DNA of 52,967 nt from positions 1 through 52,967 of the forward strand of contig JAZSDD010000077.1 in assembly GCA_045530945.1 (NCBI GenBank), in the 5' to 3' direction. The stretch's first letter is position 1; every line of letters starts with the position of its first letter. The position numbers and the translations under genes are program-made. Of this stretch, positions 1-4,178 are shown in pieces. The notes beneath the pieces are model-generated. The model was not told the DNA's origin. It made no database searches and was given only the letters and a program-made list of their open reading frames with translations. The stretch comes from Christensenellaceae bacterium. GTDB lineage: Bacteria > Bacillota > Clostridia > Christensenellales > Borkfalkiaceae.

Positions 1-260
1 TCTTTGTTTAAGAATAACTTGGTGTCACCCTTAACTTCTTCTCCGTTTGCTTCAACGTAACCAAAGCCAATAGGCATTGCATCCACGCAGTTACAGTGCC
101 AAAGTTCTACGTCTACGTTGCCTGATTTGATAATGTTGTTGGTGTTGCTTACAGAATCTGTAAACCAAGCAAAAGTTGTGCCAAACAACATTGCAATAGA
201 CAAAAGCATTGCAATAATACTTGTGATTAATGCAGATTTCATTTTTGTTTGTTTTTTCAT
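1..260 (-). CDS. TasA/camelysin-family secreted protein, N-terminal fragment (gene runs off the left window edge)
   Basis: I translated the minus strand by hand from the ATG at 258-260, which has an AGGAGAAG SD just upstream. It gives MKKQTKMKSALITSIIAMLLSIAMLFGTTFAWFTDSVSNTNNIIKSGNVDVELWHCNCVD... This is the same SipW-type signal peptide with the AWFTD motif as ORF 429..2333. It is absent from the ORF track because it is truncated. Confidence 0.8.
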   Translation of the reverse strand, partial: MKKQTKMKSALITSIIAMLLSIAMLFGTTFAWFTDSVSNTNNIIKSGNVDVELWHCNCVDAMPIGFGYVEANGEEVKGDTKLFLNK

Positions 261-349
261 TTTCAACTTCTCCTTTTTTTAAAAATTGATAGGGCTAAGC
301 AATAATAAGAACATATGATAAAAAAGGCTTAAGCCCTACCAAAAAACTA

Positions 350-385
350 CCCCCCCCCTAAAAAAGTTGCACTTTTTTAGGGGGA
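350..385 (-). terminator. Rho-independent terminator between the two TasA-like paralogues
   Basis: The hairpin is CCCCCCTAAAAAAG / CTTTTTTAGGGGG (a C9 run at 350-358 against a G5 run at 380-384). A T-run follows on the minus strand (tagtttttt), directly downstream of the stop at 429. Confidence 0.55.
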
Positions 386-428
386 GAAAGTAGATTTCCC
401 TATTTTTTGTTAACTATATAGTCTGTTC

Positions 429-2333
429 TTAACCTAAGATACGACCAATTACTTCGCTTCTAACGTTTGCACCCGTGCAATCTCCAAGAGCTTCAACGGT
501 AACGTTAGTTGCAGAACAATTTGAAACTGAAACGTTATAACCAGCACCGATTAATTGACCTGCATCACGGCCAGCCTTAACAGAACTATTAGCTGCAGAA
601 CAATCGGTAATACGAGATTCATCACCTGCATAACCAACGATTAAACCACACTTGTCGCCACATGCATCATCATTTGCGTGTGTGTCAACGATTGTAGCAT
701 TAGTAACGTGACAGTTAGATATAATACCACTGTATGTGTAGCCAACTATAACAGCAACGTTATGGTTGCCCTTAACGGTTGCGCCGTCAACGTTTACGTT
801 TTTAATGGTATATCTACCTTCCATCCAACCAAAGAGACCAGATGAATAGTGTTCCCCAGTTTGTGCAGATGAATCTATATAAAGGTTCTTAATGGTGTAG
901 TTTTGACCGTCAAAGATACCCTTAAATTCAGTTGCACCTGTTTGACCGATAGGAGTCCAAGCCTTATTTTCAAGATCTATATCTGCAACGAGAGAAACCT
1001 TTTGGTTTTTCCAAGAGTCACCACTTTCGTTTACAGACTTAGCAAAGTCAAAGAGAGACTCTGCAGAGCCTATATATTCGTGATGATAAGATTCTTCAAC
1101 ACCGTCAAAGAAGATGTGTGCGCTATTACCACGAGTGCCAACAGAAACCTTGTCACCAAAGGTACAGTTGTTGAATTCAGCCGTACTCCAAATATTGGTG
1201 TGTCCGTAATATCCGTTGAAAAGGAAAGTACAGTTATTGAAAATAACTTTTTCTAAGTCGCCAGCAAATGCGTTGAATCCACTGAACGTACAGTTATTAA
1301 AGATAAATGTTGCTCCGTTAGATTGGTCAATGTGGAAACCGTAAGTAGTATCACCTGCAAAGGTGCAGTTTTCAAAAGTAGAAGTACCGCCTTGAGCGTA
1401 AGAATAACGTACGCCGTTTGTAGCACCAGCAAAGGTTACGTTTTTAATAGTCGTATCTTTACCAAAGTTGCTACCAAAACCTGTGTTAGTATCTTTACCA
1501 CCGATAATGGTGCTTCCGTCAGCAGCGCCCTCAATAGTTACACCCTCTTTATCAGAAAGAGTTGGAAGAGTATATTCTCCCTTAGTAAGAACTAAGGTGT
1601 CACCACTTTCAATCTTACCTAACATATTTGATGGATATTCAATTTCAGGGAATTCTGCGCCTAAATCGTATTCACTTCCGTTAAAGCCGTCCTTTTCGAA
1701 ATTGGTTTGGGTTGCAACTAAGTCAATTGCTAAAACCATGCTTAAACCACCAACAACGTTATATTCGTTGTCGATTGAACTTGGGTTCCAACTAATAGCA
1801 ACGTAATAATCAACTGATTCATTAGCAAGTAAAGTTCCTTCAATAACGTATCCGTTACCAAAAGCAACGCTTTCATTACGTTTTCCATCTGGGGTTACAA
1901 AATTGCCGTTTTCGTCTTTTTCTAAGTATTTAGCTTCAATAGATAAAACGTCTGAAAGTTTTTTGCCATTTACTTCCGTTTCGAAAGCAGATTTAACTCT
2001 CAATTCATACTTTAATGCAAGTGAACCCATATTTTGAATACGGAAAGTTTCATCTGCCTTAACACCTGGTTCCCAAAGGATTTGTTCGCCATCGGTATTT
2101 AAGAATAACTTGGTGTCTGCCTTAACTGCTTCGCCAATAGTTTCATCAAAACCAAAGGTGTTTGAGTGACTGAGTTCAATGTCCAAGTTGCCTGATTTGA
2201 TAATGTTGTTGGTGTTGCTTACAGAATCTGTAAACCAAGCAAAAGTCGTGCCAAACAACATTGCAACAGACAAAAGCATTGCAATTACGCTTGCAATAAG
2301 AGCGCTTTTTAATCTCTTGTTTTTGTTAGCCAT
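429..2333 (-). CDS. Secreted fusion protein: N-terminal TasA/camelysin-like domain with SipW-type signal peptide, plus C-terminal parallel-beta-helix / GLUG-like repeat region
   Basis: There is a strong SD (AAGGAGG) before the ATG at 2333. The N-terminus is MANKNKRLKSALIASVIAMLLSVAMLFGTTFAWFTDS (A-x-F-x-D signal motif). TasA-like core motifs are present: FRIQNMGSLALKYEL and LAIDLVATQTNF. Four N-C-T-F repeats follow: ENCTFAG, NNCTFSG, NNCTFLF and NNCTFGD. The C-terminus carries FKGIFDGQNYTIKNLYI, GLFGWMEG and repeated xNCxxTNxxV turns typical of GLUG/beta-helix surface modules. Confidence 0.75.
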   Translation of the reverse strand: MANKNKRLKSALIASVIAMLLSVAMLFGTTFAWFTDSVSNTNNIIKSGNLDIELSHSNTFGFDETIGEAVKADTKLFLNTDGEQILWEPGVKADETFRIQNMGSLALKYELRVKSAFETEVNGKKLSDVLSIEAKYLEKDENGNFVTPDGKRNESVAFGNGYVIEGTLLANESVDYYVAISWNPSSIDNEYNVVGGLSMVLAIDLVATQTNFEKDGFNGSEYDLGAEFPEIEYPSNMLGKIESGDTLVLTKGEYTLPTLSDKEGVTIEGAADGSTIIGGKDTNTGFGSNFGKDTTIKNVTFAGATNGVRYSYAQGGTSTFENCTFAGDTTYGFHIDQSNGATFIFNNCTFSGFNAFAGDLEKVIFNNCTFLFNGYYGHTNIWSTAEFNNCTFGDKVSVGTRGNSAHIFFDGVEESYHHEYIGSAESLFDFAKSVNESGDSWKNQKVSLVADIDLENKAWTPIGQTGATEFKGIFDGQNYTIKNLYIDSSAQTGEHYSSGLFGWMEGRYTIKNVNVDGATVKGNHNVAVIVGYTYSGIISNCHVTNATIVDTHANDDACGDKCGLIVGYAGDESRITDCSAANSSVKAGRDAGQLIGAGYNVSVSNCSATNVTVEALGDCTGANVRSEVIGRILG

Positions 2334-2407
2334 GTTAATAAACCTCCTTGAAAAATTTTGTTGACTAACTCAATAAACGGTTTCCCGTGTTATTTATAAT
2401 TTAATTT

Positions 2408-2650
2408 TTATTTAGCCTCACTTTTGAGAGTTAGATTAAATTCTCCGTTTTTATCAACTTCTATATCGTTATAAATCACGTCTAAATCAATGTTTTGCAT
2501 TGATATAAAATCTTTATAATTTTTTACAGCAATGTCAACTGCCTTATCAAACTCTATAACGTAATGTTTTTTATTTTCCTTTTCGCTTTTTAGCGTGATT
2601 ATGTACATCTCGTTCTCCATAGAGCGTTTTTGGTCTCCTCTTTGTTGCAC
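2408..2650 (-). CDS. Small hypothetical cytoplasmic protein inside the sipW-tasA-like operon (start uncertain)
   Basis: This ORF sits in the operon between sipW and the fusion gene and has no signal peptide. The listed start is a GTG with a weak SD. Internal ATGs (MENEMYII) are alternative starts. Confidence 0.4.
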   Translation of the reverse strand: MQQRGDQKRSMENEMYIITLKSEKENKKHYVIEFDKAVDIAVKNYKDFISMQNIDLDVIYNDIEVDKNGEFNLTLKSEAK

Positions 2651-3230: not shown

Positions 3231-3239
3231 TTTATCCTC

Positions 3240-3773
3240 TTATGCAAATTTTGCGCTCGGATTGTTGTCTGCTTTCACCGCGTCAACTCGGCAGTTAAAA
3301 GTAACTTGTGAGCTTGTATACTCGTTAGTAGCATAACTTGACATTTTGGCTTTTACCGTGAAATAAACTTTTTCACCGCTTTTAATAGCCTTTTTAGAAA
3401 TTATTGGATTTTCCTCATTAAGTTCCGTCATCTTTCCGTCAAAGAGCGTTTCTCCTCCCGAACTAACGTTAAAGAAAACCTGCTCTTTTAACTCACCATC
3501 TATATCTTCTAAATAGATTTTGTAAAACGCACTTAAACTGCCAACGTTTTCAATAAAAACTTGCGTTTCTATTTCTGCACCTGGCTGGGTTTCAATACTC
3601 CCGTTAAACATAACGTTACCGTCGTTAAAATTCAACTTAACCTTGTTATCAGGCACAAATCCATTAATTGACTTAAGAAAAAGAAAAACTGCTACCAAAA
3701 AAAATACTATGGTTAGCAGTATACAAACACTTTTCTTCACTTTTTCGTTTTTAAAAAGTCCAGCAACACGCAT
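3240..3773 (-). CDS. Small TasA/camelysin-like protein with an N-terminal membrane anchor and no AWFTD motif, first gene of the operon
   Basis: The motif FIENVGSLSAFYKIYL parallels FRIQNMGSLALKYEL in the 634-aa protein. The N-terminal hydrophobic segment is SVCILLTIVFFLVAVFLFL. Its stop overlaps the SD of sipW. Confidence 0.55.
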   Translation of the reverse strand: MRVAGLFKNEKVKKSVCILLTIVFFLVAVFLFLKSINGFVPDNKVKLNFNDGNVMFNGSIETQPGAEIETQVFIENVGSLSAFYKIYLEDIDGELKEQVFFNVSSGGETLFDGKMTELNEENPIISKKAIKSGEKVYFTVKAKMSSYATNEYTSSQVTFNCRVDAVKADNNPSAKFA

Positions 3774-3897
3774 TGCTTACTACACCACCATCTAATTATA
3801 AATACTGCTTAGCAAAAAATTTTCAGTCCCTAAATTATTACACATATCATTAATTGATAATTTGTAGTAACATAGCGCTGTCTCGTATGATTAAAAC

Positions 3898-3941
3898 TAC
3901 CATTTTGGTAGTTAGGAGTATATTCTACTACCGAAATGGTA
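3898..3941. promoter_or_regulatory. Twin palindromes TACC-N5-GGTA (candidate operators) in the divergent sipW-operon / XRE intergenic region
   Basis: TACCATTTTGGTA lies at 3898-3910 and TACCGAAATGGTA at 3929-3941. The two are 31 bp apart start to start, about three helical turns, just upstream of the XRE gene. Confidence 0.4.
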
Positions 3942-3968
3942 ATATGTCAAATGAAAATGGGGGTTTTT

Positions 3969-4178
3969 ATGAAAATTTTTTTAGGGAGAACTTTAAGAGA
4001 ACTAAGATTAGAAAGGGGGCTAACGCAAAAAGAAGTTGCAGATGCTCTTAAAATTAGTAGTGTTGGATATTTACATTACGAAAAGGATCAAAGAGAACCG
4101 CCACTGTCATTGCTTGCAGATATGGCGGTTTTTTTTGAAGTTTCTGTAGACTATCTACTTGGGTTAACTTCTTATTAA
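3969..4178 (+). CDS. XRE-family helix-turn-helix transcriptional regulator (SinR-like position)
   Basis: The sequence LRELRLERGLTQKEVADALKISSVGYLHYEKDQREPPLSLLADMAVFFEVSVDYLLG is a canonical HTH_3/XRE fold. I chose the ATG at 3969 because of the GGGGG SD. The gene is divergent from the sipW operon. Confidence 0.8.
   Translation: MKIFLGRTLRELRLERGLTQKEVADALKISSVGYLHYEKDQREPPLSLLADMAVFFEVSVDYLLGLTSY

Follow-up and report, generated by a model that had tools for sequence, protein, structure and literature searches.

The first 4.2 kb of contig JAZSDD010000077.1 from a Christensenellaceae bacterium (assembly GCA_045530945.1; "the window" hereafter denotes the whole stretch of 52,967 bp that was analysed) carry on the minus strand a gene for a 177-amino acid (aa) protein, sipW, a small open reading frame (ORF), a gene for a 634-aa protein, a terminator and a further gene of which the beginning is present, with a gene for an XRE-family regulator transcribed divergently. 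The 634-aa protein and the product of the further gene are referred to as cargo proteins 1 and 2. We estimate at roughly 0.7 the probability that the locus is chromosomal and forms an operon under the control of the XRE protein, by which an uncultured gut member of the Clostridia makes surface fibres or adhesins in the TasA/CalY/BsaA manner with the help of SipW. An original prediction made from the DNA letters had proposed the same minus-strand gene order with a divergent XRE gene, every element of which was found at or near its expected place, and its central claim, a SipW-type peptidase operon with three TasA-superfamily paralogues including one large fusion, is borne out by curated models, profile-profile comparison and structure, with matches well above chance level. 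The locus most likely builds fibres or adhesins, and it is unusual in combining large adhesin-like fusion subunits with a small, probably membrane-tethered subunit that is devoid of the linking strand.

A dedicated signal peptidase of the SipW type

The 186-aa peptidase of the operon matched the SipW model NF046067 (E 6e-14) and scored 51.3 bits against the archaeal/endoplasmic reticulum (ER)-type model TIGR02228, 0.5 bit below the cut-off of 51.85, and no LepB/SipS-type match (Peptidase_S24/S26, TIGR02227) was obtained at E<=1 in Pfam or NCBIfam. Its sole sequence relative in the PDB was human SEC11C (7p2q), and in the alignment of the two proteins the T-H102-K-I of the peptidase falls on the conserved V-H-R-V and its DVDDD acidic cluster on EVDD, with S58-M located upstream. 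Since the best models are those of SipW and of archaeal/ER-type enzymes, the histidine lies on the SEC11C motif and LepB-type matches are lacking, the peptidase was assigned to the SipW/ER type, which was also the side favoured by the original prediction when it suggested a grouping against SipS/LepB-type enzymes; a general LepB-type enzyme was ruled out because no matches of that type were obtained. Judged from the sequence, S58, H102 and D127/128 are candidate catalytic residues, which would constitute a Ser-His(-Asp) instead of a Ser-Lys arrangement, and S58, H102 and the acidic cluster are kept in the related loci L079 and L081. The peptidase has hydrophobic segments at its N- and C-terminus, and a look-up of its exact sequence returned no identical record.

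Cargo proteins with an N-terminal TasA-like module and large passengers

In cargo protein 1 the signal peptide spans aa 1-32, with TFA|WF as the predicted cut; it is followed by a donor-strand segment with a TasA-like sandwich (aa 33-~215) and by a beta-helix/GLUG passenger (aa ~230-634), in which Beta_helix matched at aa 291-393 and GLUG at aa 522-549. The protein exceeded the cut-offs of TIGR04088, the model for SipW-dependent signal peptides (19.7, cut-off 19), and of PF12389 (Peptidase_M73; 26.6, cut-off 22.5), the latter match covering aa 8-58 only, equivalent to profile positions 2-51 of 196. Recognition by TasA-type hidden Markov models (HMMs), which had been anticipated for the N-domains of both the 634-aa and the 177-aa protein, was thus direct for the former, whereas the latter is connected to the superfamily through profile-profile alignment (hhalign, E 1e-16) and structure, as described below. 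Cargo protein 2 starts with a SipW-dependent signal peptide (…GTTFAWFTDSV…) and the beginning of a TasA-like domain, scores 107 bits against the HMM of the cargo N-domain and shows 80% identity with cargo protein 2 of L081 (623 aa); the two cargo genes of the window share 82% DNA identity across their first 168 nucleotides (nt), and both proteins contain the signal-peptide motif G-T-x-A|x-F-x-D. For the exact sequence of the 634-aa protein the look-up found no identical record, and relatives of cargo protein 1 are known at 99% and 82% identity. A profile of 28 cargo homologues aligned with TasA of Bacillus subtilis, represented by a sequence identical to PDB 8AUR across residues 28-261, over 81 columns (hhalign 52%, E 1.4e-4) that extend from the signal peptide to …PG…F-x-N-x-G-S-L-A, which provides modest support. 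When the cargo N-domain profile was compared with PDB sequences TasA was not recovered, and the top matches, ARP9 and SNF2, are due to chance.

The cargo N-domain is widespread, with 996 homologues in a protein search and at least 568 confirmed places in the species-representative genome collection, from which 78 genome loci were fetched for comparison. All of these loci belong to Clostridia (Oscillospiraceae, Christensenellaceae, Lachnospiraceae, Acutalibacteraceae) with the exception of one metagenome-assembled genome labelled Muribaculaceae (L053), and cultured species represented among them include Hydrogeniiclostridium mannosilyticum and Cuneatibacter caecimuris. The strong N-domain proteins in the 78 loci (n=132) have a median length of 626 aa and reach up to 2189 aa, so that in this clade the N-domain is as a rule joined to a large passenger. 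Recognisable passengers are few and all of adhesin type (BspA-type leucine-rich repeats, Beta_helix, GLUG, pectate-lyase-like adhesive domain), and the passenger present in the window recurs behind the same N-domain in many proteins. Across 66 cargo proteins the signal peptide, the donor-like segment, in which N43 and I45 are invariant, and a WEPG…ALKY core are best conserved and the passengers vary freely. In the same set E88 of the WEPG motif and K108 of the ALKY motif are kept in at least 90% of the proteins, and N43, E88 and K108 are all present in the 634-aa protein of the window. By resemblance to N35/E56/K74 of BsaA these three residues could represent an isopeptide lock. In the exchange-and-lock subunits of the BsaA type, the Asn of this triad belongs to the donor strand and the catalytic Glu and the Lys to the acceptor, the isopeptide bond being intermolecular. 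The window 177-aa protein has Q at the Glu position of this set, and most of its family have R at the Lys position.

The 177-aa protein is a diverged member of the TasA superfamily

Apart from the small orphan ORF, which was likewise matchless in the Pfam and NCBIfam scans, the 177-aa protein is the only member of the operon without a direct match to a curated model, and no direct match was found in Pfam, NCBIfam or the PDB sequences. A word-indexed protein search retrieved one close relative only (92%), and a full HMMER scan 203 relatives, most of which are stand-alone proteins of 165-190 aa, with some of 360-490 aa that carry the 177-like domain at the C-terminus. An alignment of 40 members of this family matched the cargo N-domain family over 171 columns including the signal peptide (hhalign 98.8%, E 1e-16) and TasA over 79 columns (92%). 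In addition, 33 of the 40 members match PF12389 at E<=0.1 (best 7e-8) and 15 of 40 match TIGR04090, the BsaA family model. An AlphaFold2 (AF2) model built from the family alignment reached a mean confidence (pLDDT) of 89.4 and consists of an N-terminal helix (aa ~10-37) followed by a seven-strand sandwich; a single-sequence model was poor (pLDDT 57) and was not used. The best PDB match of the family-based model in Foldseek was the TasA fibre (8aur_A; E 2.6e-5, probability 1.00, template modelling score 0.53), and other matches comprised the archaeal bundling pilus 7ueg and the donor-strand pilins FimG, CfaB and PapA. The core motifs PG, xNxG and YKxY and the NNPxxxF end are kept in the window protein.

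In line with these results the 177-aa protein is a third TasA-superfamily paralogue that has diverged too far for the curated models. This agrees with the prediction of a TasA-like, N-terminally anchored protein lacking the A-x-F-x-D motif. The further proposal that it is an analogue of TapA was overstated: the gene occupies the position of tapA and the protein has no similarity to TapA, as there was no TapA structure (fold PDB 6HQC) among the 50 Foldseek matches listed and no match to a TapA model at E<=1, but as a TasA paralogue it is not a TapA-type protein, and any shared role would be a functional analogy only.

A separate observation concerns P0123, a relative of 4006 aa with ten partial copies that match residues 46-116 of the 177-aa protein. 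In view of these copies the first half of the TasA-like sandwich also exists as a tandem, stalk-like repeat.

The cleavage motif and about one donor segment are missing in the window protein

The hydrophobic N-terminus of the 177-aa family closes with x-[TS]-[FY]-A-[LM], and hhalign sets this motif on the G-T-T-F-A|W of the cargo proteins; in TasA the equivalent is T-W-A, which immediately precedes the mature form. Of 72 family members that bear the motif, 57 have its Ala exactly 19 residues ahead of the first core strand (V-x-I-x-L-N-D-G), and from cleavage site to strand the cargo proteins have 17 residues and TasA has 16. The first ~11 residues after the cut are the donor strand in TasA and BsaA (PMC9674648, PMC11580942). 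The site or a near variant of it is kept in all 16 genome-locus orthologues with the N-terminus present, one more orthologue being cut by a contig end. The window 177-aa protein has no cleavage motif (…LVAVFLFLKSINGFVPDNKVKLNFNDG), as is also the case in L081, P0125 and P0126, and just 14 residues separate the end of its hydrophobic helix from the first strand. By comparison of sequences, roughly 11 residues, corresponding to about the donor segment, are missing. Since the shortened N-terminus is common to the sub-clade of L081, P0125 and P0126, it is inherited rather than a lesion of recent origin.

In many loci a 220-300-aa ORF just upstream of the 177-like gene encodes a paralogue with a PPxTG/SPKTG sorting motif followed by a hydrophobic stretch and basic residues. 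Long representatives contain the wall-sorted paralogue and the 177-like domain as one in-frame fusion, and their topology is consistently out-in-out. The PPxTG/SPKTG ends match the (S/P)PxTG sorting motif described for sortase B of Clostridioides difficile. Neither a PPxTG paralogue nor a sortase motif was found in the 53-kb window.

Gene order in related genomes

The comparison of gene neighbourhoods that the original prediction had called for revealed that the same gene logic recurs in 15 loci of Clostridia families. When HMMs of the 177-like, SipW and cargo types were mapped onto the 78 loci, the order 177-like gene, sipW and one to five cargo genes was found in these 15 loci, and in three more the 177-like gene stands directly ahead of cargo genes; together they represent 17 of the 39 loci with a strong SipW match, plus L048, for which there is no SipW gene within the fetched stretch. 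The gene order of the window is also that of the loci L082, whose cargo protein is 99% identical, and L079, with 95% identity at the DNA level. The locus L081, on a 404-kb contig of assembly GCA_052829045.1, has the whole neighbourhood in common with the window, from secE to Mem_trans; its operon comprises an XRE gene (69 aa) and, divergently, genes for a 179-aa protein, SipW, a 68-aa ORF, a 633-aa cargo and a 623-aa cargo protein, after which a convergent unrelated gene follows. Between the window and L081 the identities amount to 74% for XRE, 66% for SipW, 83% for cargo protein 1 and 80% for the N-terminus of cargo protein 2.

Two other locus types were encountered among the genomes compared. 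In L001-L004, L007, L011, L012 and L015 (Christensenellaceae and other Clostridia) the SipW-matching ORF, as predicted, is 235-658 aa long, and more than 400 aa in all of them except L003, with a ~610-aa cargo gene directly 3' of it. These loci have a divergent XRE gene and no strong 177-like gene, and SipW may be fused to an extra domain in them. In L006, L025-L027, L032, L050, L052, L062, L067, L071 and L076 two SipW-like genes are present, one with a strong and one with a weak match, and weakly matching small TasA-like ORFs, some with PPxTG, surround cargo genes of up to 2015 aa. This two-SipW type looks like a more elaborate version of the system.

A divergent regulator and a promoter with two palindromes

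The regulator encoded next to the operon matched HTH_3 (E 2.6e-13), a helix-turn-helix (HTH) family, and stops right after the HTH. A GGGGG ribosome-binding site ahead of the ATG at 3969 points to a protein of 69 aa, which would have at most 80 aa if read from 3936. Neither a SinI domain nor an adjacent small antagonist gene was found at the locus. Of the predicted divergent, SinR-like regulator, the divergent orientation and the XRE assignment were thus retained and the likeness to SinR was not; as the protein has no SinR C-terminal domain and no SinI partner, it is more appropriately termed XRE-like. The gene is syntenic in L079, L081 and L082, where the 69-aa gene of L081 is the one with 74% identity, and 9 of the 78 genome loci have a small divergent XRE gene immediately before the operon.

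The best promoter-like site of the region, TTGACA-17-TAGAAT at 3950..3922, reads toward the operon, and the start codon of the XRE gene lies 19 nt beyond its -35 hexamer on the opposite strand. A 15-nt inverted repeat (3927-3941 / 3898-3912; 93% complementary) forms two palindromes of the type ACTACC-n5-GGTAGT, the first within the promoter spacer and the second close behind the -10 hexamer (about +1 to +17). The promoter hexamers are invariant in L079, L082 and L081, and the palindrome half-sites in all four related loci, and the rest of the 5' leader, downstream of the operators, has diverged in L081. On sequence grounds the XRE protein likely represses the operon via these two palindromic operators (ACTACCnnnnnGGTAGT sites), with autoregulation.

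Layout and genomic setting of the locus

The features of the locus are listed in Table 1. Only 9 nt separate the stop codon of the 177-aa gene from the start of sipW.

Table 1. Features at the left end of the window (a point marks features assigned to neither strand)
Feature	Position	Strand	Evidence and remarks
Cargo gene 2, 5' part (86 codons)	1..260	-	Cut by contig end; translation
Intrinsic-terminator-like hairpin between cargo genes 1 and 2	350..388	-	18-bp stem, 7 GC pairs, T-run
Cargo gene 1, 634 aa	429..2333	-	TIGR04088, PF12389, Beta_helix and GLUG matches
Small ORF, 66 aa	2408..2608	-	GGAG 6 nt before ATG 2608; 80 aa if GTG at 2650 is used
SipW/ER-type signal peptidase I, 186 aa	2670..3230	-	NF046067, near-cut-off TIGR02228
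177-aa TasA-fold paralogue	3240..3773	-	Family profile, AF2 model, Foldseek
Operator palindrome 2 (candidate) TACCattttGGTAGT	3898..3912	.	Inverted repeat and conservation
Operon promoter TTGACA-17 nt-TAGAAT	3922..3950	-	11/12 consensus positions
Operator palindrome 1 (candidate) ACTACCgaaatGGTA	3927..3941	.	Inverted repeat and conservation
XRE-family HTH regulator, 69 aa	3969..4178	+	HTH_3; divergent from operon; ORF opens at 3936; 5' end overlaps the -35 region of the operon

Because the window is the entire contig of 52,967 bp, the truncation of cargo gene 2 is the end of the assembly, and metagenome scans aimed at extending the contig leftwards found no extension. Since the operon of L081, the closest complete relative, ends after two cargo genes, the window operon most likely ends with the truncated cargo gene 2. 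A long series of further paralogues to the left, for which the original prediction proposed to look, is thus not indicated.

The 66-aa start of the small ORF between sipW and cargo gene 1 is also used by gene calls on related contigs (L082: 66 aa). The ORF has no signal peptide and no family match in Pfam or NCBIfam, and no homologue was found in the 78 loci. In L081 (9784-9990, 68 aa) and L080 (1-138) the same slot is occupied by an unrelated, zinc-ribbon-like ORF of the type CxxC…CxxC, so that in the window, L082, L081 and L080 the slot always contains a small ORF without signal peptide and of differing content, the window and L082 having the orphan 66-aa form. The small ORF, an orphan, is probably no core component; a role as a conserved component of the system was ruled out, as it is not conserved in L081 or L080.

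The flanking genes are those of an ordinary chromosome and encode a Mem_trans permease, an ornithine carbamoyltransferase, a cyclophilin-like protein, L1 and NusG. At the far end of the window two large ORFs on the minus strand (46006-49581 and 49947-52928) encode proteins of 1191 and 993 aa with no Pfam match at E<=0.1. The 1191-aa protein has a classical signal peptide, and both have a common C-terminal module (…NVYFV.NG.P.Y.Q…KFYTTMD.MK…NDYSSF…W…PVW). By appearance the two are secreted paralogues of an unassigned family.

A possible assembly route and its alternatives

From the gene content and the homologies described above we infer a route in which Sec would export both large cargo proteins and their SipW-type signal peptides would keep them in the membrane. 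Cleavage after …TTFA by the dedicated ER-type SipW would then set free an N-terminal segment (WFTDSVSNTNN…), the counterpart of the donor strand of TasA and BsaA, and by entering the incomplete sandwich of a neighbouring TasA-like domain this strand would link the subunits, which would display their C-terminal beta-helix/GLUG passengers as adhesive heads. The 69-aa XRE protein would repress the operon at the two promoter-overlapping palindromes. The 177-aa protein would be a minimal TasA-fold subunit that has lost the cleavage motif and donor segment in this lineage; most likely tethered to the membrane by its N-terminal helix, it could accept the donor strand of a cargo protein and so form a membrane-proximal base or a terminator. 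In sister lineages the small subunit has the strand and might act as an adaptor to the sortase-anchored paralogue.

TasA assembles by donor-strand exchange (PMC9674648), and in the model proposed for BsaA the monomers are held until SipW cuts them, the newest, still signal-peptide-held subunit receiving the strand of the growing oligomer (PMC11580942). An acceptor-base role of the 177-aa protein fits this growth model (PMC11580942), and with its donor segment missing the protein would be unable to donate a strand. We therefore favour, tentatively and at somewhat less than even odds, an acceptor-only base or anchor subunit that holds the donor strands of the cargo proteins. Rather more speculative is the wider idea of a sortase-independent display, in which a strand-less TasA-fold socket in the membrane would receive large, exchangeable adhesins that, once cut by SipW, plug into it and into each other, possibly locked covalently through the conserved Asn-Glu-Lys set, with sister lineages adapting the socket to a PPxTG paralogue.

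Several observations weigh against these interpretations. The PF12389 and TasA matches of the cargo proteins are limited to the signal peptide and first strands, and as direct matches reach this N-terminal part only, the evidence for a TasA-like fold of the cargo domain is transitive, via the 177-aa family. An alternative cut at LKS|I is conceivable in the 177-aa protein, with a small residue at -1 and an aliphatic one at -3, and would result in release instead of anchoring; it would leave merely 8 residues ahead of the strand. Absence of the PPxTG paralogue does not generally go together with absence of the cleavage site, and six loci without the paralogue keep the site. The 177-aa protein (3240-3773) is merely 32% identical to its L081 copy (8575-9114), compared with 66-83% for its neighbours, which either reflects faster evolution, for example by diversifying selection on a surface-exposed protein, or replacement by another family member, and which a strictly conserved structural role would not obviously predict. 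Finally, the case for binding of the XRE protein to the palindromes consists of their position and conservation.

Alternatively, the 177-aa protein could be an initiator or chaperone in the manner of TapA or CalY, which is scarce and transiently primes the TasA-like domain of the cargo proteins and forms no permanent base. Its gene is in the tapA position directly upstream of sipW with a gap of 9 nt, TapA acts by strand complementation and a camelysin paralogue was proposed for the role of TapA in Bacillus cereus (PMC10151520), and most members of the 177-aa family retain a cleavable site and a complete donor segment as a strand-donating initiator would need. However, the window copy is without the very segment needed for donation by an initiator, and it resembles neither the TapA fold nor the TapA models, which renders this alternative unlikely for the window protein.

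Somewhat less likely again is the absence of any fibre, with the cargo N-domain serving as an export or stalk module of monomeric secreted beta-helix adhesins or enzymes and the 177-aa protein as an independent small matrix or membrane protein. The match of the cargo domain to true TasA is indeed weak and N-terminal only, the first half of the 177-aa fold is tandemly repeated in the 4006-aa protein like an ordinary immunoglobulin-like stalk, and beta-helix passengers can be enzymes, as illustrated by a Pect-lyase_RHGA_epim match in one relative. On the other hand, conservation in the 66 cargo proteins is highest in the signal peptide, in the donor-like segment and in the WEPG…ALKY core, the passengers being free to vary, the linkage to a dedicated SipW and a small paralogue is kept across families of Clostridia, and the characterised superfamily members TasA, BsaA and archaeal AbpA polymerise via donor-strand exchange. 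That the 177-aa gene is a decaying, non-functional paralogue without contribution to the system is very improbable, given that, in spite of the missing curated-model match, the low identity to the L081 copy and the degenerate motif, an uninterrupted ORF is present in the window, L079, L082 and L081, the comparison with L079 gives 16 synonymous and 14 non-synonymous changes in 178 codons (ratio of non-synonymous to synonymous rates, dN/dS, ~0.3), the core motifs are kept, the AF2 fold is confident and the shortened N-terminus is common to the sub-clade.

Relation to known systems

The original prediction regarded the whole locus as an uncharacterised assembly system, which does not apply to the class, since published SipW operons already combine several BsaA/TasA paralogues with sortase signals and peptidases (PMC7395162, PMC11580942); this sub-family and its fusion architecture alone are unstudied. 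Operons with several BsaA/TasA paralogues beside genes for a peptidase, a sortase and LPxTG proteins have also been noted, and heteropolymers were suggested (PMC11580942). The window resembles sipW-bsaABC(RSD) of Clostridium perfringens in having a dedicated SipW-type peptidase and several TasA-superfamily paralogues in one operon, and in that system a read-through terminator follows bsaA with a paralogue downstream, to which the hairpin layout of the window is similar (PMC7395162). Likewise, signal-peptide-held monomers, a SipW cut, donor-strand exchange and, in some strains, sortase-anchored paralogues have been published for C. perfringens (PMC7395162, PMC11580942). In contrast, the window peptidase is encoded second, after the small paralogue, its cargo proteins are beta-helix fusions of 620-630 aa compared with single domains of 23 kDa, a divergent XRE gene takes the place of the BsaRS two-component system, the von Willebrand factor A-type protein (BsaC) is absent, and the sequence similarity is remote, the window 177-aa protein having no TIGR04090 match.

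With tapA-sipW-tasA of B. subtilis the window has in common the order of accessory protein, sipW and fibre subunit, the ER-type SipW and an HTH regulator of the XRE superfamily, in the window a probable repressor, and TasA can be aligned with the signal peptide and first strands of the cargo proteins (G-T-x-A|x-F-x-D … PG … F-x-N-x-G-S-L-A). The two differ in that the accessory protein of the window is a TasA paralogue without TapA fold, its subunits carry large passengers, and its regulator is adjacent, divergent and without the SinR oligomerisation domain or a SinI partner; moreover, TasA has K and not E in the xPG motif and is without the N-E-K set. Similarly, several camelysin/TasA paralogues are found by sipW in sipW-tasA-(bc1280)-calY of B. 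cereus, one of which was proposed as an initiator replacing TapA (PMC10151520). The window has no homologue of CapP/BC1280, and the single-domain proteins of B. cereus contrast with its fusion cargo and its small paralogue devoid of a donor strand.

A functional analogy, and no membership, can be drawn with chaperone-usher and sortase pili. In chaperone-usher pili, subunits without an N-terminal extension such as FimH accept a strand only and thereby form one fibre end, and in sortase pili a dedicated base subunit stops growth and anchors the fibre. FimG, CfaB and PapA were among the structural matches of the 177-aa model, whereas the window has no usher, chaperone or sortase and differs from these pili in export route and phylogeny. 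In the literature we found no description of the conserved small-paralogue family upstream of sipW, of its strand-less membrane-tethered variant, of the routine fusion of a TasA-like module to large adhesin passengers in gut Clostridia or of the operator-bearing promoter.

Studies of TasA-type fibres have so far dealt with single-domain subunits of the biofilm matrix, in Bacillus and in C. perfringens. The Oscillospiraceae, Christensenellaceae and Lachnospiraceae among the uncultured gut Clostridia commonly have the donor-strand module at the N-terminus of very large, variable adhesin-like proteins, in the company of a dedicated SipW and of a conserved small paralogue left unannotated by existing models. 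If the proposed system is real, it would explain how diverse adhesins come to be mounted at the cell surface, which this lineage would achieve without a sortase signal, and would provide a natural set of variants, with and without donor strand, with and without wall-anchored partner, and as fusions, for studying how TasA-type fibres start, end and are anchored. If the 177-aa protein indeed acts as a membrane socket, gut Clostridia would possess a modular, widespread and so far undescribed route for mounting adhesins.

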